A stretch of 20,335 nt of DNA, from IMG/VR virus record IMGVR_UViG_2660238548_000027, positions 1 through 20,335 of that record; one strand, 5' to 3'. Source of the DNA: a virus. Taxonomy: Duplodnaviria > Heunggongvirae > Uroviricota > Caudoviricetes. Shown here one piece after another: positions 6,288 to 13,444 of this stretch (within the stretch, counting starts at the first letter, position 1; every line of letters starts with the position of its first letter). The position numbers were made by a program, and so were the translations under genes. The notes under the pieces were generated by a model that did no database searches, was not told the DNA's origin, and was given only the letters and a program-made list of their open reading frames with translations.

Positions 6288-9200
6288 TGCCGTTCTATCC
6301 TGTATCTGAATCAAACAATAACGGATTTATTTCTGCTGGTCTCGCCATTCCTGAACCTGATGAACAGAGTTTTGATGTGCATCCGCCAGAAGGTAAGAAC
6401 CCTGAGCCTCGCCCAAAAGAGCCTTCATTGCTTGCCGCAGCAATACGACAGAACAATATTCTGGCTGGTTTTTTCCGTCCTGCCAGACAGTTTGAACCGG
6501 TCGAAGGTTATAACCCATATGCTGATAAAAATGAGTTGCACGGCTATGAATACTGGGGGGCGAAATTTGCAGGTTCCCGCTCGCCAGAAGAAACAGCGTG
6601 GATTAAGCAGCAGATAGATGATGAAAATGAAGATCGGCGTTTTATCTCTGAAGCAGGCTTGGCTGGTGGAATAGCCAGTGCAACAGCGATGCTTTTTGAC
6701 CCGGTTACTGTTGCGTCAATGTTTATCCCTGGTGCTCAAGGAGGGGCACTGGCGCGTATTGGCTCACAGATTGCGATTGGTGCTGCCGGTACTGCATTAA
6801 GCGAGGTTGTACTGAATAATCAGCAAATAACACGCTCATGGGGTGAAAGTGCCGCTCACGTTGCAGCGGGTGCGATGATGAGCGGCGTGTTTGCCAGTGC
6901 TGGTGTTGCGCTTTCGCCATCCGTCCGGGCTGCAGCCACACGTGAGGTTGCTGATGCTCTTGATAATATGAGCATTACATCAGCGACTGACAGGGCTGCC
7001 GCTTCGCTTTCCGATGGTGGTAGTGTTGGTGCTATGAAAATTGATACAGCGACTCTGGATGATTTAACCCCTGTTTCTGGTGGGGTGGTTGGAAAGGCTG
7101 CATGGAAAGCAGGGAGCTATCTTACTCCTTTGACAAGGTTAATGGAGTCTCCGTCCAAGACGGTGCGAAAAACAACGCTGGAGTTAGCCGAAAATAATTT
7201 CACCCTTAAAGGAAATGAAAGGGGGATTGAAACACCGGTAGCTGTAGAAACCCGTACACGTGGATGGCAGCGTGAAGAAGCTGCTGTTGTTGTCGGAAAT
7301 AAACAGGCATACGCAAAGTATAAAGCTGATGGTGGTGACATGAGTTTTGATTCATTTCGTCAGCAGGTTGGGAATGCTATGCGAAGCGGTGATGTGCATG
7401 CTAATCCTGTTGTTCAGGAAACGGCGCAGGCGATGCGAACTGTATTAAATCGGGTGAAAGTTGAAATGCAAAAGCTTGGTTTATTGCCGCCAGATGAAGA
7501 ACTGAAAGCATTAGGCCAGGCAAGCTATTTCCCACGCATATATAAAGTTGGAAAAATAATCAGTGAACGCGATAAATTTCGACGTATTTTGGTTGACTGG
7601 TGGTCGAGAGGAAATAAAACACTGGATCCTGAGGATGCTGAAATTGCAGCGGATATCGTAATTAATAAAATTACTGGTGCTAAGGTTCCACAGGATTTTG
7701 TCAGCGTATTTTCTGTAAAAGCCGCAGGTAGTACGAAAGAAAGAACATTAAATGTTCCTGATAGTCTTATCAGGGATTATCTTGAAAGTGATGTGAATTA
7801 CGTGCTGCAACGTCATATCCGTGAAGCGGCAGCAGAAATTGAGTTGACGAGAACATTTGGCAAACGAACTATGACTGAGCGTCTGCAATTAATTGAGGAC
7901 GAATATGACAGTCTGTTACGGGAAGTGCCTGAAAAAATAAAGGCGAAATATGACGAAAGTGTGGCAAATCTGAAAGCACGTTATGAGAGCAATGGTGAAG
8001 TTGTTCCTCAGGGTAAACTCGATTCATTAATGCGAAAGTACGAAAAGGAATTACGGAAAGAACAGTCCAGACTTTCAAAATCAAGAGCAAATGATCTCAG
8101 AGACATAACAGCATTACGCGATCGTCTTGTTGGTACATATGGTATGCCTGATGATCCGTCTTCGTTTTTTGTTCGTGCTGGCGCTTTTCTGCGGGATGTG
8201 AACTTCACGACCAAACTCGGTGGAATGACAGTATCAGCTATTCCAGATCTGGCCAGAGGGGTTATGGTTAATGGTTTCCGTAACACCATGAAAGGCTATG
8301 CTTCTCAGATATCCCAATCACCGGCATTTAAGGCCAGCAAAGAAGAGATGTTGAAGATGGGGATTGGATTGGAAGCTGTACTACATTCACGTTCTCGTGC
8401 AATTGGTGATCTTGTTGACAGTTCTTCCAGGACAACAGCAGTCGAAGCAGGAATGGAGCGAATTACTGATGCCTTCGGCAAGCTGACACTCATGGATCGA
8501 TTTAATGACATAAACAAATCCATGAACGGAATGCTCACGTCAGACGGTATTTTGTCTGGTGCGTTTTCTGCACGTCGCATGGCAAAACTCGGTATCAACG
8601 ACAATATGGCTGCGCGTATTCGCAGTGAGTTCGAGAAACATGGTGAGGTAATTGATGGATGGCACATTGGTAACTTTGATAAATGGGACGATCAGTACGT
8701 TGCCGGAGTATTCCAGTCAGCGGTTCTGAAAGACGTTAATAACACTATCATCACCCCCGGTATTGGTGACACACCTTTATGGGCGAGTACTCCAATGGGG
8801 CGAACGATATTTCAGTTTAAATCATTCACAACGGCTTCATACAACCGTGCGCTACTTGGTGGGTTACAGGAAGGAACTGCGCAATTTTATTATGGCACTG
8901 CATTTCAGATTGCTCTTGGCTCACTGGTCTATGCGCTAAAAGAAGCATCGAAAGGGAAAAATGTTGACTGGTCACCAGAGAAGCTGGTGCTTGAGGGTAT
9001 AGATAGATCCGGTATTCTTGGGCCATTGATGGAATATAACAACATGGCTGAAAAGGCTACTGGTGGTGCTGTTGGGCTGGGGGCTTTATTTGGCACTGGC
9101 ACACAGTCTAGGTATGCCAGTCGTGGATTCGTAGGATCTCTATTCGGACCGTCATTTGGTCTTGCGGATAGCATCATTGATGTGACCGCAGGAGTGTTGA

Positions 9201-9625: not shown

Positions 9626-9973
9626 TTAGTGGCGGGAGAAATAGGACACACGGAAATAAGTTACCGTCATAATCAACCGTGTCGATATCGATACGGTTGA
9701 TGTTTCAATACTTTCGCGGATTTCAGGGCGGACTTTGTTAGGGCTGATGCTGTTCAACCAAGCTGCCAATTTTCGTAAAGCCATACAAATCATGGCTTGC
9801 ACCCCACCGGCAGAAGGTATGGTGATTTCCACCATACCCTTCGAGAAGCGTTGAGAAATCTTCTTATGTTGAGATTTCCAGTCTAGCCCCATTCCCTCAA
9901 CGATAGGTTTCATTGGGGTATATGGTTCGCCGTTGTGATTGACAACATAAAGCTCTGCGCCGTGGAATGGCAC
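9626..9973 (-). pseudogene. Probable remnant of an antirepressor-family gene (N-terminal DNA-binding-type domain only)
   Basis: Conserved-looking PFHGAELYVVNHNGEPY...IVEGMGLDW...GGVQAMICMALRKLAAWL, but no ATG (first start is GTG at 9973, frame open to 10033) and a low-complexity C-terminal tail, suggesting truncation. Confidence 0.4.
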
Positions 9974-10091: not shown

Positions 10092-10121
10092 TTGATTTTA
10101 ATATTTCTTAGCGCTTATCAT
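10092..10121 (+). promoter_or_regulatory. Candidate sigma70 promoter for leader RNA copy 1 (TTGATT-N18-TATCAT)
   Basis: -35 TTGATT 10092-10097, -10 TATCAT 10116-10121; copy 2 has TTGCAA-N17-TATATT at the equivalent position before the conserved TTACCTTTGCGG start. Confidence 0.35.
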
Positions 10122-10250
10122 TACCTTTGCGGTAAATTTACATCGCACTCCTCTTGTGCCATAGTAATCATGCACTGGCAAAATCCAGTGCCGGGATTGG
10201 TCTCCCGGATTACTAAGTGGCGCATACCACGCCAGACGTGGTTTTTTTTA
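10121..10250 (+). ncRNA. Structured leader/sRNA-like element, copy 1 (three-way junction plus terminator-like hairpin/T8)
   Basis: Outer stem TAGTAATC/GATTACTA (10162-10169/10208-10215) encloses hairpins CACTGG-CAAAAT-CCAGTG (10173-10190) and CCGGGA-TTGGTC-TCCCGG (10191-10208); then CCACG-CCAGA-CGTGG + T8 (10227-10249). Homologous copy on the minus strand at 13003-13135. Confidence 0.5.
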
Positions 10251-10407
10251 TGCGTATAGCACAGTCATGCCAGAATTATGGTGGGCTGAATGGGGGTCCG
10301 AAAGGACGCCGGTACCACTTAGGCCGGTAAGACCAACTCCGTTCAGTTCACCACCATCTGATTGGTCTCAGCGGTGGTGATGTAATTCGCTAAGTGGAGA
10401 CGCCATC
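10251..10407 (+). promoter_or_regulatory. Structured 5' leader of antirepressor 1 with co-varying pairing sites
   Basis: GAAA-tetraloop hairpin GTCC-GAAA-GGAC (10296-10307); AGACCAA (10330-10336) complementary to TTGGTCT (10362-10368) in the loop of hairpin CACCACC/GGTGGTG (10349-10379); SD GGAGA 10396-10400. Confidence 0.45.
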
Positions 10408-11064
10408 ATGAACGCTCAACTCATCCCCGTATTCAACGGCACTATATCTAACGAAACAGCCCTACTTTGTAATGCCCGCGATCTGCACGCTTTTTTAGGT
10501 GTTAAAAAGGTGTTTGCAGCATGGATTACAAATCGCATATCAGAATACGAATTCATTGAAAATCAAGACTATATTTTGCTTTCCAATTTGGGAAAGCAAA
10601 CATCTGGTAGAGGCGGCCACAACCGCAAAGAGTACCACCTCACCCTTGATACAGCCAAAGAGCTGGCGATGGTCGAGCGTAACGAAAAAGGTCGTCAGGT
10701 ACGACGCTACTTCATTGAATGCGAGAAACGTTTAAGACAACAAGAAACAAAAGTGGAGAAGGTCTTGTCAGGCTTCATGCCCGCCATTATGGAGGCGATC
10801 AAGCTGGAAGACAAAAAAGAATACAGCGCCCCACTGAAGCCCGGCTACCGCAGTTTGATTCACTCGCCGTCTGGTGTTCTCGGCCTGACGGAGAACTCAC
10901 TGCTGATGAATCTGCTGAACCAGTTACAGGAAGACGGGCACGACGTATCGGGCGCGGCGGCGGAGCTGACCACCATGTTCTGCTACATCGTCGGTGTGAG
11001 CAAATGCCTGCGTGATATCCAGACGCACGCGGAGTACATCAACGACAAGGCAGGGTTCTTCTGA
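10408..11064 (+). CDS. Antirepressor, AntA-type N-terminal domain plus shared C-terminal domain, 218 aa
   Basis: SD GGAGA 7 nt upstream; N-terminal pattern LIPVFNG...[10 protein letters not shown]...FAAWITNRI typical of AntA-type domains; C-terminal ~85 aa essentially identical to the C-terminus of the minus-strand gene at 12169-12858. Confidence 0.8.
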
Positions 11065-11087
11065 CGGGCGGCGGCACAGGGACGTGC
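10822..11087 (+). repeat. Inverted repeat arm A (3' coding region of antirepressor 1 plus ~23 nt past the stop)
   Basis: Reverse-complement match to 12146-12411; identical over the 84 nt compared (10981-11064 vs 12169-12252), with a few synonymous differences further 5'. Confidence 0.8.
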
Positions 11088-11113
11088 AAAACGAAACTAG
11101 CGTGACATGTCAC

Positions 11114-11138
11114 AGGCCGCTTTCGCGGCCTTGTTTTT
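11114..11138 (+). terminator. Intrinsic terminator after antirepressor 1
   Basis: AGGCCGC-TTTC-GCGGCCT hairpin followed by TGTTTTT. Confidence 0.6.
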
Positions 11139-11298
11139 AACGAATGCCACCGCCGCCCGGGCGGGAATCCGCAGAACGCCCACCGCAGCGGGAGCCGTCA
11201 GCAGCAGTGTCGCTGTCGTGCTGACAACGACCGGCAAAGGCCTGAGTTGAAGCTACCAGAGACAACAAAACGAACAGTGCAGCAAATGCTTTTTTCAT
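11137..11298 (-). CDS. Small secreted peptide, 53 aa (signal peptide + ~31-aa mature part with 2 Cys)
   Basis: Track ORF 11137..11370 trimmed to ATG 11298 (MKKAFAALFVLLSLVASTQAFA / GRCQHDSD...); the upstream part of the track ORF overlaps a promoter-like sequence. SD weak. Confidence 0.4.
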   Translation of the reverse strand: MKKAFAALFVLLSLVASTQAFAGRCQHDSDTAADGSRCGGRSADSRPGGGGIR

Positions 11299-11311
11299 TG
11301 TGAAATTTCCA

Positions 11312-11339
11312 TCTATAAGCCACCTCAATGTGGCGTCAA
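11312..11339 (-). promoter_or_regulatory. Candidate promoter for the small peptide gene (TTGACG-N16-TATAGA on minus strand)
   Basis: -35 = reverse complement of 11334-11339, -10 = reverse complement of 11312-11317. The -10 lacks the terminal T, so weak to moderate. Confidence 0.3.
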
Positions 11340-11370
11340 TGAGTGTAGCACTGACTTTTGTTTCGTCCAC

Positions 11371-11394
11371 AAAAAAGCCCGCGCTGCGGGCTTC
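11371..11394 (-). terminator. Intrinsic terminator directly after the 210-aa cargo gene
   Basis: Minus-strand reading: GCCCGC-CAGC-GCGGGC hairpin followed by TTTTTT (plus-strand A6 at 11371-11376). Confidence 0.6.
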
Positions 11395-11396
11395 TA

Positions 11397-12029
11397 TTAA
11401 TGCAGTTTATCTTTGCTTATAACCAGTAGTCTGTGGGTATGCACATCTTTATCACTGCCCCAACAGAAATCAGCCCACTGGCTATAGAAATCATCCCATG
11501 ATGTCATGAAGCTAAGAGGTCTATCTTCTTCAGAGCCATCTGAAACGTATACATTATATCCCGGGGTGTTTATAGCCCAAGAAATCATTCTTTCCCAGAA
11601 TCTTCTCCCATCGATTGTTTGTTGCTCATCAGATACAACGATCGCATATTGCTCTAGGAAGAACTGAAAAAAAATCTGAGGCAAACCATGAACAGCACGG
11701 TCATGAATAACATTAGGCGTACGCCATACCATGATCTGCGTACATGTTCTTTTGGCTTCGACGATATCTTCCCGAAAGATTAACTTAACCGCATACACCG
11801 TTTCTGGAGTATCGCTGGTAGTAATCATTCTGTAATGATCGCCATTACAAGATTTTACAAGGCGATAACCATAAGGTGTTGTGAATCCCGGAAGAACGAA
11901 ATCAACCACACCTTTCGCTAAGTAGCTTTCGGTGTGACTAGTGTTCTTCTCAGACATGTTCAGTTTTCTATCGAAATCTGCTTCTGGGATAATGTATGGC
12001 ATCGCTTTTCTTGTTGTATTTGTTCTCAT
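11397..12029 (-). CDS. Hypothetical cytoplasmic protein, 210 aa (cargo/moron gene of unknown function)
   Basis: Strong SD GGGAGGA 5 nt upstream of ATG (12029); own terminator; visibly lower GC than flanking phage genes; no TM or signal peptide; no motif recognised. Confidence 0.7.
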   Translation of the reverse strand: MRTNTTRKAMPYIIPEADFDRKLNMSEKNTSHTESYLAKGVVDFVLPGFTTPYGYRLVKSCNGDHYRMITTSDTPETVYAVKLIFREDIVEAKRTCTQIMVWRTPNVIHDRAVHGLPQIFFQFFLEQYAIVVSDEQQTIDGRRFWERMISWAINTPGYNVYVSDGSEEDRPLSFMTSWDDFYSQWADFCWGSDKDVHTHRLLVISKDKLH

Positions 12030-12145
12030 TTCGTCCTCCCATGTTTGGCTACAGGACGTGTTTTGAAGGGAAGATTAAAAATGCTTTCTTACCCTTGAGG
12101 TAATAGTACGCTATTCACCTGCAATCTGTACAGAATTATTTAAAG

Positions 12146-12411
12146 GCACATCCCTGTGCCACCGCCCGTCAGAAGAACCCTGCCTTGTCGTTGATGTACT
12201 CCGCGTGCGTCTGGATATCACGCAGGCATTTGCTCACACCGACGATGTAGCAGAACATGGTGGTCAGCTCCGCCGCCGCGCCCGATACGTCGTGCCCATC
12301 GTCCTGTAACTGGTTCAGCAGATTCATCAGCAGTGAGTTCTCCGTCAGGCCGAGAACACCAGACGGCGAGTGAATCAGGCTGCGGTAGCCTGGCTTCAGC
12401 GGGGCGCTGTA
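12146..12411 (-). repeat. Inverted repeat arm B (3' coding region of antirepressor 2)
   Basis: Reverse complement of 10822-11087 (see arm A). Confidence 0.8.
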
Positions 12412-12858
12412 GGTTTTGTTCTCTATCTTCATCGCCTTCATCACTGCTGACGCCGTGGCGTTGGCTACCTGGTCGGCAACCATCTTTATGCGTTCTTCCT
12501 GCGGGAGCGAGTTTTTAATGTAACTTCCGGTGCGGCGGATCTGAGGAAGAACCTCACCTGTAACCCATTTACGAAAGCGGTATGGGATAGTGCCTGGTGT
12601 CACCGCATCGCGGCAGCGGAGGATCAGTGTGTAGAGGCCTGACTCGTTGATAATATTGGTTTCGCCTTGACGGCCTAAGTTAAATTTAGCCCTTTCATCA
12701 TCATCAAGAGATTTTATTGACATAGTGGGGTTTGTCAGTTGAAGAGCTTTAATAACGTCTTTGGCAACAAACCAAGGATTTCCATCAATAACAATGGCTC
12801 GAATGGTTGCTTCTGATTCAAAATGAAAAACAGATGGGGTTACGTTAGCAGTCATAGT
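12169..12858 (-). CDS. Antirepressor, Bro-N-type N-terminal domain plus shared C-terminal domain, 229 aa
   Basis: SD AAGGTGA upstream of ATG 12858 (track ORF extends to 13008 through the leader; start reassigned to MTANV). Bro-N hallmarks GNPWFVAKDV and LDDDERAKFNLGRQGE; C-terminus matches gene 10408-11064. Confidence 0.8.
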   Translation of the reverse strand, partial: TMTANVTPSVFHFESEATIRAIVIDGNPWFVAKDVIKALQLTNPTMSIKSLDDDERAKFNLGRQGETNIINESGLYTLILRCRDAVTPGTIPYRFRKWVTGEVLPQIRRTGSYIKNSLPQEERIKMVADQVANATASAVMKAMKIENKTYSAPLKPGYRSLIHSPSGVLGLTENSLLMNLLNQLQDDGHDVSGAAAELTTMFCYIVGVSKCLRDIQTHAEYINDKAGFF

Positions 12859-13002
12859 GATCACCTTTGTAGTTAGGTTAATCACCACTACCGACGCCAA
12901 TCGGTTGGTGGTGAACTGTGCAGGGTTGGCGTAACCGGCTACAAAGGACCCGGCGCACCTTTCGGTGCCCCCACACAGCCCACCATAGAATAGGTGCGTT
13001 TT
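12859..13002 (-). promoter_or_regulatory. Structured 5' leader of antirepressor 2 (copy 2 of the co-varying leader)
   Basis: Minus-strand sense: GCACC-GAAA-GGTGC hairpin; ACGCCAA (plus 12918-12924) complementary to TTGGCGT (plus 12886-12892) inside a CACCAC/GTGGTG hairpin. Confidence 0.45.
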
Positions 13003-13135
13003 ACACATAAAAAAACCGCTTATGCGGCATATGTGCCTCTGTAGTAATCCGGGACGCCAATCCCGGCACTGGATTTTGCCAGTGCCCGATTACTATGGCA
13101 CAAGAGGAGTGCGATGTAAATTTACCGCAAAGGTA
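13003..13135 (-). ncRNA. Structured leader/sRNA-like element, copy 2
   Basis: Same three-way junction as copy 1, with hairpin B loop TTGGCG instead of TTGGTC; CCGC-ATAA-GCGG hairpin + T7; identical 5' 40-nt segment TTACCTTTGCGGTAAATTTACATCGCACTCCTCTTGTGCC. Confidence 0.5.
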
Positions 13136-13167
13136 AATATAAGCACTCCACTTGGTAATTGCAAACC

Positions 13168-13425
13168 TTATCTGGTTTGTTTTCGTAATTGTTCGGCACA
13201 ATAGTCGAGATGTGTTTGCAGATCCCGCATAGACATCTGTGAGCTGGTGACGTAGTTAATCAGTGCAGTCAGTTCGGCAAGTGGGCCATCGACATTAAAT
13301 CCATCCTTATCGAGATCCCGGAGTAATTTCATCAAGTGCGATCCCTCCACCAGTGACCTGACGCCTCCCGGCGTGTGAATCCTTTCGGTAAATCCGTCTT
13401 CCAGTGGATAGTGATACTGCTGCAT
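13168..13425 (-). CDS. Small stand-alone paralogue of the antirepressor C-terminal domain, 85 aa; probable SOS-induced antirepressor
   Basis: ATG 13425 (MQQYHYPL...) with SD GGAG; track start 13443 is TTG. About 45% identity by eye to the shared C-terminal domain (IHxPxGV...AELT...RDxQTH). LexA box just upstream. Confidence 0.7.
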   Translation of the reverse strand: MQQYHYPLEDGFTERIHTPGGVRSLVEGSHLMKLLRDLDKDGFNVDGPLAELTALINYVTSSQMSMRDLQTHLDYCAEQLRKQTR

Positions 13426-13444
13426 CTTATCTTCTCCATGCAAT

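Follow-up and report, generated by a model that had tools for sequence, protein, structure and literature searches.

The window analysed here, the whole stretch of 20,335 nucleotides (nt) from the IMG/VR virus record IMGVR_UViG_2660238548_000027, carries two convergent antirepressor genes. Each has 5' of it one of two inverted, diverged copies of a region of ~290 nt, as an earlier reading made from the sequence alone (hereafter the sequence-only reading) had proposed, and as both an alignment and a repeat search bear out. Copy 1 (10092-10420, plus strand) and copy 2 (12843-13165, minus strand) align over 332 columns with a mean column identity of 84%, and near their 5' ends they share one identical run of 49 nt and one of 29 nt. 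The repeat search returned inverted arms at 10110-10215/13042-13147 (106 nt, 93%) and a second arm pair at 10307-10381/12881-12955. Each copy very probably represents an entire c4-type antisense module ("immI") that belongs to an epsilon15-like (Uetakevirus) Escherichia coli prophage.

Antirepressor 1 (10408-11064, plus strand) starts with an AntA domain (PF08346, E 4e-26; phrog_377 anti-repressor Ant, E 3e-66) and antirepressor 2 (12169-12855, minus strand) with a Bro-N domain (PF02498, E 4e-20; phrog_130 anti-repressor Ant). These N-terminal domains are unrelated, and the last ~78 amino acids (aa) of the two proteins are ~99% identical, which suggests recent domain shuffling or gene conversion behind the shared C-terminal domain. 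A 279-nt inverted repeat, 95% complementary (10809-11087 and 12146-12424), corresponds to this common domain.

Two RNA elements in each leader

An Rfam scan of the whole window gave four matches, two to isrK and two to C4, all of them over the curated gathering thresholds. This covariance-model search, which the sequence-only reading had proposed as a check, thereby placed both families in both copies. The isrK family (RF01394), an Hfq-binding RNA family, scored 67.7 bits in copy 1 and 76.8 bits in copy 2 (gathering score 50), and C4 (RF01695) scored 61.2 and 79.5 bits, respectively (gathering score 45), with full-length matches. Because these thresholds are exceeded, both copies belong to the C4 and isrK families by the families' own criteria, and the similarity to c4 that had been noticed is homology, not mere resemblance. 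What had been described as a single leader is instead two RNA elements in series, an IsrK-like (a1b1) element with its own terminator, and then C4.

Both modules have the same sigma-70-like promoter by sequence, TTTACA-17-CATAGT with a TG extension (10137-10165, plus strand; 13092-13120, minus strand), and it is identical in the two copies. Transcription would start near 10172, which is also the first base of the isrK match. Adjoining the -35 element we read an operator-like palindrome, TTACC-N5-GGTAA, at 10121-10135 in module 1 and at 13122-13136 in module 2. In related prophages its half-sites are conserved while the spacer varies, and for this reason the palindrome looks like a putative protein operator, presumably bound by a repressor, in analogy with the C1 operator Oc4 of phage P1.

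The IsrK-like RNA covers 10172-10248 (plus strand) in module 1, where its fold has a z-score of -2.9, and 13009-13085 (minus strand) in module 2. The 5' part of the leader is predicted to fold into three consecutive hairpins, two ordinary ones followed by the intrinsic terminator. In copy 1 the terminator lies at 10226-10242 and runs into a T-run, with the stem ACCACG/CGTGGT; in copy 2 it lies at 13028-13015, with the stem GCCGC/GCGG(T). The hairpin with a U-tract and differing stems in the sequence-only reading is this terminator. From its layout we infer two isoforms, a short RNA and a read-through mRNA. Directly 3' of the T-run there is an ATG (10250-10252 in copy 1; 13006-13008, minus strand, in copy 2), which most homologs keep, either as ATG or as GTG. 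The copy 2 codon (13008) shares the reading frame of the antirepressor and opens a 279-aa open reading frame (ORF), without a clear Shine-Dalgarno sequence.

A more permissive scan added matches, just short of the gathering score, to c4-a1b1 (RF03163, "a1, b1 targets of C4 antisense RNA") at 10159-10211 in copy 1 and at 13046-13098 in copy 2. RF01394 and RF03163 match overlapping stretches of one element in the window (10159-10248 and 13009-13098), in P1, in Gifsy-1 and in APSE-7; overlapping matches of this kind are located at 8218-8312 in locus L200 and at 34240-34329 in locus L202. The a1 and b1 sequences are both present upstream of C4 in each copy. Going by these matches, the names IsrK (RF01394) and a1b1 (RF03163) denote a single element. 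The Rfam clan CL00128 holds C4 and c4-a1b1 but not isrK.

The C4 antisense RNA follows at 10274-10358 (plus strand) and 12904-12990 (minus strand). In both copies its minimum free energy (MFE) fold is a three-way junction with a long closing stem, two hairpins and a single-stranded 3' junction strand (-41.2 kcal/mol and z-score -5.5 in module 1; -45.2 kcal/mol and z-score -3.6 in module 2). The predicted folds agree with the family models. The compact three-way junction of the sequence-only reading therefore exists, but it is this downstream element and not the 5' part of the leader. The first C4 hairpin has a GAAA tetraloop and compensatory stem changes between the copies, as previously described and now seen in both the Rfam match and the fold. 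The second hairpin has a variable loop, and the 3' end, ACCACC(A), is conserved. On the same strand, the antirepressors start 50 nt (AntA type) and 49 nt (Bro-N type) downstream of the C4 match. The 3' strand of the C4 closing stem is also the 5' arm of an alternative hairpin, CACCACC/GGTGGTG (10349-10379, plus strand, in copy 1), which presents the site a2, introduced below, in its loop.

Two co-varying triples of pairing sites

Our site names follow the P1 record, which calls the site in the loop b' and that at the junction a'; the three sites that the sequence-only reading had found to change together are thus the a sites. On the plus strand of copy 1, these are a1 (TTGGTCT, 10197-10203) in the loop of IsrK hairpin 2, a' (AGACCAA, 10330-10336) on the single-stranded junction strand of C4, and a2 (TTGGTCT, 10362-10368) just downstream of C4. 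On the minus strand of copy 2, they are a1 (TTGGCGT, 13054-13060), a' (ACGCCAA, 12926-12932) and a2 (TTGGCGT, 12894-12900). The co-change of all three sites was confirmed by checking the sequence. The positions first given for them were correct throughout copy 1 and for the first site of copy 2, while the last two sites of copy 2 had been placed 8 nt away, at 12918-12924 and 12886-12892.

A second co-varying triple, the b sites, is absent from the sequence-only reading and was found in both copies. In copy 1 (plus strand), b1 (CTAAGTGG, 10213-10220) lies in the single-stranded linker of the IsrK-like RNA, b' (CCACTTAG, 10315-10322) in the loop of C4 hairpin 2, and b2 (CTAAGTGG, 10390-10397) overlaps the Shine-Dalgarno sequence GGAG (10396-10399) of antirepressor 1. 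In copy 2 (minus strand), b1 (CTACAGAGG, 13036-13044) lies in the IsrK linker and pairs with b' via one G.U, b' (CCTTTGTAG, 12939-12947) sits in the loop of C4 hairpin 2, and b2 (CTACAAAGG, 12864-12872) overlaps the Shine-Dalgarno sequence AAGGTGA of antirepressor 2. The matches of a' and b' to their downstream targets are exact in both copies, 7 nt long for a and 8-9 nt for b. Every a or b helix joins a hairpin loop to a single-stranded partner, which is the usual layout for fast antisense recognition. Between the middle part of the IsrK-like RNA and ~30 nt of the downstream C4/orf45-equivalent region, duplexes of -30.1 and -35.1 kcal/mol are predicted, which span a, CCGG and b.

Covariation across homologous leaders

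Homologous leaders were collected with a pattern anchored on IsrK hairpin 2, its loop left free, which retrieved at least 119 viral contigs and 77 genome contigs. True relatives in the genome set came from Klebsiella, Enterobacter, Citrobacter, Serratia, Erwinia, Edwardsiella, Aeromonas and others. The chance matches of the pattern in unrelated phyla served as an internal negative control, and the triple occurred in none of them. For the covariation analysis, 66 non-redundant leaders from many Enterobacterales and Aeromonas were aligned with MAFFT, and the counts were made for specified structures.

All four helices examined in this set covary. In a1:a', 92.9% of the cells are paired, with compensatory changes at six of the seven pairs, and in a':a2 91.0%, again with compensatory changes at 6/7 pairs. 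The C4 closing stem is paired in 98.5% of the cells (compensatory changes at 12 of 17 pairs), and the hairpin that presents a2, in which GGTGGTG pairs with the 3' strand of the C4 stem, in 93.8% (5/7 pairs). Slid controls reached only 31-45%, and none of 500 shuffles attained the observed values. Most of the unpaired cells stem from about nine rows with a spacer before a' that is 1 nt shorter, in which MAFFT misplaced the gap.

A test independent of gaps found the exact reverse complement of a1 within the a' window in 64 of the 66 leaders and a repeat of a1 at a2 in 62, while mismatched sequence pairs, taken as a control, gave 20 matches in 3632. The leaders hold 18 distinct a-codes and 56 distinct b' loops. 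For b, we took the longest Watson-Crick match that b' finds in the region ahead of the start codon; its mean length is 7.9 nt in the leader's own sequence and 3.9 nt in the regions of other sequences. This covariation rules out a chance repetition of the motif. The functional RNA pairing proposed in the sequence-only reading, which had also suggested such an alignment of homologs, is supported by these compensatory changes and by Gifsy-1 mutants that fall inside a1:a' (PMC4825925).

Comparison with known systems

The immI region of P1 shows the isrK, c4-a1b1 and C4 matches in the same order as the window, and so do Gifsy-1 and APSE-7. P1 scores 68.8 bits for C4 and 51 bits for RF03163, and its GenBank record annotates the C1 operator, promoters, a1, b1, c4, a2, b2, icd and ant. 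From 5' to 3', P1/P7 and the window share a repressor-controlled promoter (in the window a putative one), an a1b1 element with a terminator-like hairpin, the C4 three-way junction, a2 in the loop of a hairpin that uses the C4 3' strand, b2 on a ribosome-binding site and an antirepressor gene. Over 292 nt, nearly all differences between P1 and P7 fall at a1/a'/a2 (TTGACAG versus TTAGCAG) and b1/b'/b2 (GTTAGTG versus GATTGTG). The two phages differ from each other at all six sites, as the two window copies do. The c4 RNA, which Citron and Schuster described in 1990 (cited in PMC12197685), reportedly blocks the translation of ant around the ribosome-binding site and is the basis of the heteroimmunity of P1 and P7 (reviewed in PMC12197685). 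Both c4 and c4-a1b1 were listed by Weinberg et al. 2010 (PMC2864571).

The systems also differ. In P1, b2 lies on the ribosome-binding site of icd, which is translationally coupled to ant, whereas in the window it lies on that of the antirepressor itself and there is no icd; the icd relay is a trait of the P1 operon, not of the C4 RNA family. The antirepressor families are AntA and Bro-N in the window and different ones in P1/P7. Moreover, P1 and P7 are plasmid prophages with one module, while the window is part of a podovirus-type integrated prophage with two.

The isrK-orf45(STnc1160)-anrP locus of the Salmonella prophage Gifsy-1 likewise lies upstream of an antirepressor, and its isrK match scores 79.3 bits. 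Its a-code is that of window copy 2 (TTGGCGT/ACGCCAA/TTGGCGT) and its b-code is different. Compensatory mutants, G28A/C162U and G31A/C159U, were made in this locus by Hershko-Shalev et al. 2016 (PMC4825925). Counted from the isrK start, G28A and G31A fall in a1, and C162U and C159U in a'. When supplied in trans, IsrK raised anrP translation 139-fold (PMC4825925). An ORF of Gifsy-1, orf45, begins within the C4 closing stem and is coupled to anrP; the window lacks an ORF of this kind. The downstream circuit of Gifsy-1 (AnrP, then AntQ) is that of a lambdoid phage and need not apply here.

In the APSE phages of Hamiltonella, a BRO-N gene is directly preceded by isrK and c4 small RNAs (Rouil et al. 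2020, PMC7313666). Only one module is present, and the authors made no link between IsrK and the a1/b1 sites (PMC7313666). The APSE-7 record annotates isrK, C4, a' and b', with the a'/b' labels reversed relative to P1. The CI RNA of the satellite phage P4 follows a similar logic, in which one processed RNA is complementary to an upstream and a downstream site of its own transcript (seqA and seqC), but there it acts through premature transcription termination. The likeness with the window is one of logic, and the structural parallel is the one cited in the IsrK paper. The sar RNA of P22 also limits antirepressor translation, and P22 immI is similarly placed, between injection/tail genes and the tailspike gene. 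However, sar transcription runs on the strand opposite its target, whereas all six sites of each window module are short, separated stretches on one strand. A sar-like cis-antisense RNA is thus ruled out, and the comparison with sar drawn in the sequence-only reading fails on this point.

Proposed mechanism and alternatives

Family membership, site architecture, covariation and predicted orthogonality together argue that both copies are c4-type antisense modules. Transcription would start at the promoter common to both copies, beside the operator-like palindrome, to which, by analogy with P1/P7 and Gifsy-1, a repressor probably binds. The first 77 nt would give the IsrK-like RNA, with a1 in a hairpin loop and b1 in the linker, ending at the intrinsic terminator. 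Read-through would produce C4, a three-way junction that displays b' in the loop of a hairpin and a' on its unpaired junction strand, and would continue into the antirepressor mRNA, with a2 just 3' of C4 and b2 over the Shine-Dalgarno sequence. In P1, c4 is cut from the common transcript by RNase P. Likewise, going by P1/P7 and Gifsy-1, C4 would here be cut out and act in trans, possibly with RNase P or Hfq involved, pairing a':a2 and b':b2, so that antirepressor translation is blocked and the prophage repressor protected. The short IsrK-like RNA, which carries the a and b sequences of the target, would be a target mimic that binds C4 over ~30 nt and lifts the block; this activating direction of its effect, too, is modelled on P1/P7 and Gifsy-1. 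In an uncut read-through transcript the same pairing would occur in cis and give a locked, inactive fold. Control might lean more on cis or more on trans action.

In P1 and Gifsy-1, control is relayed by a small upstream ORF (icd and orf45, respectively). In the window, neither antirepressor start has an ORF longer than five codons that ends at its ATGA, and the orf45 frame (ATG of ATGGTGGG) meets a stop after 3 codons in copy 1 and after 15 in copy 2. Since an icd or orf45 equivalent is lacking, it is plausible that control must act directly on the antirepressor ribosome-binding site.

Several points speak against this reading. The absence of the relay ORF is one of them. The c4-a1b1 scores (37.6 bits in copy 1 and 45.1 bits in copy 2) stay below the gathering score of 46.7 bits. 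The Gifsy-1 study took the C4 region as an mRNA segment of a cis switch and not as a trans repressor (PMC4825925). Finally, in the homolog L083, a1 mismatches its own a' and a2, and a1 may thus be dispensable. The L083 leader (11097-11381, minus strand) is chimeric, with an a1 of TTGGTCT and a'/a2 of the ACGCCAA/TTGGCGT type, which suggests that recombination can uncouple the upstream a1 from C4 and its target.

A purely cis-acting, bistable leader, as Gifsy-1 has been read, is possible but on the doubtful side. Here, the a1b1:a'b' lock would form within one molecule, C4 would never be a free repressor, and the short IsrK-like RNA, by opening the fold, would be the sole trans-acting RNA. In its favor, the MFE structures of both full-length leaders contain a long-range a1b1:a'b' helix and correspond to "structure A" of the Gifsy-1 paper, which native gels and the compensatory mutants back and in which IsrK activates in trans (PMC4825925). 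Furthermore, covariation is seen both in the C4 closing stem and in the downstream hairpin that competes with it, as it would be in a switch. Such a leader does not explain, however, why a2/b2 co-vary with a'/b' as tightly as a1/b1 do. In addition, the c4 of P1/P7 complements in trans and sets immunity specificity (PMC12197685), a processed species of ~80 nt, STnc1160, exists in Salmonella (PMC4825925), and the window has no orf45 for the coupling step of Gifsy-1. The cis leader and the antisense module are not mutually exclusive.

Control by termination, as in P4, appears improbable. A processed RNA would then pair with a1b1 and a2b2 mainly to cause premature termination, not to block the ribosome-binding site, a possibility raised together with the seqA/seqC parallel in the IsrK paper (PMC4825925) and in line with the intrinsic terminator directly 3' of a1b1 in both copies. 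Against it, b2 lies over the Shine-Dalgarno sequence not only in both copies but also in P1 and Gifsy-1, the stretch from C4 to the start codon holds no terminator-like site in either module, and in Gifsy-1 the co-expressed C4 region did not stop the IsrK-mediated growth arrest (PMC4825925). A small leader peptide like orf45, or a non-functional relic of a duplication with incidental motif repeats, is hardly credible: although the ATG/GTG after the terminator is conserved, that of copy 2 (13008) is in frame with the antirepressor and orf45 is translated in Gifsy-1 (PMC4825925), no frame is conserved (the orf45 frame is the short one given above), the changes are compensatory base pairs across 18 a-variants and 56 b' loops and not codon conservation, and according to the Gifsy-1 authors themselves it is the nucleotide sequence that is conserved, while the amino-acid sequence varies (PMC4825925).

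Two predicted specificities in one prophage

The two copies differ at all six a and b sites, and the predicted energies of single helices separate self from cross pairing. For b, the self helices reach -12.4 and -12.0 kcal/mol versus -5.3 and -5.4 kcal/mol for the cross helices; for a, the values are -9.2 and -10.3 versus -4.4 and -5.7 kcal/mol. The two specificities suggested by the sequence-only reading are therefore borne out in prediction, at about -9 to -12 kcal/mol per self helix versus -4 to -6 for cross pairing, and P1 and P7 differ alike. Duplex energies of whole segments, computed over 61 leaders, gave no more than a rough separation of self and non-self, owing to promiscuous pairing of the conserved GCCGG/CCGG stems, and they were replaced by the per-helix energies and the exact-match tests.

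Given that none of the six sites is the same in the two modules, each C4 should control its own antirepressor only, as in the heteroimmune pair P1/P7, and the two modules are predicted not to cross-react. In the other two-module prophages among the collected loci, b is always different and a usually so. The difference between paired modules could reflect either selection or a by-product of recombination. Throughout these loci, b' loops such as TACCACTTAGG, GTCCTTTGTAG and GTCCTTTTAG are seen together with TTGGTCT as well as with TTGGCGT, the two common a-codes. For this reason, the a- and b-specificities re-assort, even though each needs three coordinated sites.

Genomic context

The two modules are surrounded by genes for a tail protein, internal virion proteins, a tail fibre, an O-acetyltransferase, a holin and an endolysin, and the closest DNA matches of the window are phiV10 and TL-2011b. 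By these neighbors and matches, the window lies in an epsilon15-like (Uetakevirus) E. coli prophage. A search of 5426 complete E. coli genomes found the leader in 467, and the RefSeq relatives examined list no non-coding RNA feature under it.

Further antirepressor-related genes lie close by. Directly upstream of module 2 and in the same direction, a 91-aa ORF (ORF91; 13168-13443, minus strand; phrog_450/15539) encodes a stand-alone homolog, at 41% identity, of the shared C-terminal ~80 residues. A truncated third antirepressor gene (9626-9973, minus strand) retains only a P22_AR_N N-terminal domain and is annotated as a pseudogene in RefSeq relatives. The Rfam scan placed no C4 or isrK element beside it.

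Two cargo genes lie between the convergent antirepressors (11137-12029, minus strand). The first (11397-12029) encodes a protein of 210 aa (phrog_1349, of unknown function), and the second (11137-11370) a membrane-associated "moron" protein of 77 aa. Neither these two genes nor ORF91 had a Pfam, PADLOC or NCBIfam match. At the equivalent position, phage TL-2011b has a YafO-family toxin.

The segment of ~3 kb between the shared 5' parts of the leaders (10110-13136) holds both antirepressor genes and the two cargo genes. Among the matches listed, E. coli EcPF40 and about 18 further complete genomes have it the other way round with respect to its flanks, and only strain AH20E044 shares the orientation of the window. 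The segment contains no recombinase gene to account for the inversion, and homologous exchange between the inverted leaders is therefore the simplest cause.

Implications for prophage immunity

A wider, two-part reading would combine a two-channel anti-immunity device with a combinatorial RNA "immunity barcode" across enterobacterial prophages, and we regard it as rather unlikely. In its first part, the orthogonal c4 modules, with identical promoter and operator and flanking a 3-kb cargo segment seen in both orientations, may form such a device. Inversion of the segment might then alter which antirepressor gets read-through transcription from the flanks. In its second part, the 18 a-codes and 56 b-codes, freely re-assorting, could form the barcode. 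If this reading were true, one prophage would restrain two heteroimmune antirepressors and silence incoming relatives of either RNA code.

Taken as c4-type modules, the two leaders are an already described RNA switch and not a new RNA, and the inference first drawn from them was sound. The three-site co-variation, recovered blind, is the pattern that defined P1/P7 heteroimmunity in 1990. The current understanding is not overturned, and the added points are modest. The apparent identity of IsrK with a1b1 joins the work on the "activating small RNA" of Gifsy-1 and that on the "repressing antisense" RNA of P1 in one scheme. Furthermore, c4 modules can plausibly act directly on the ribosome-binding site of an antirepressor, with neither icd nor orf45, and a single prophage can hold two modules that are predicted not to cross-react.

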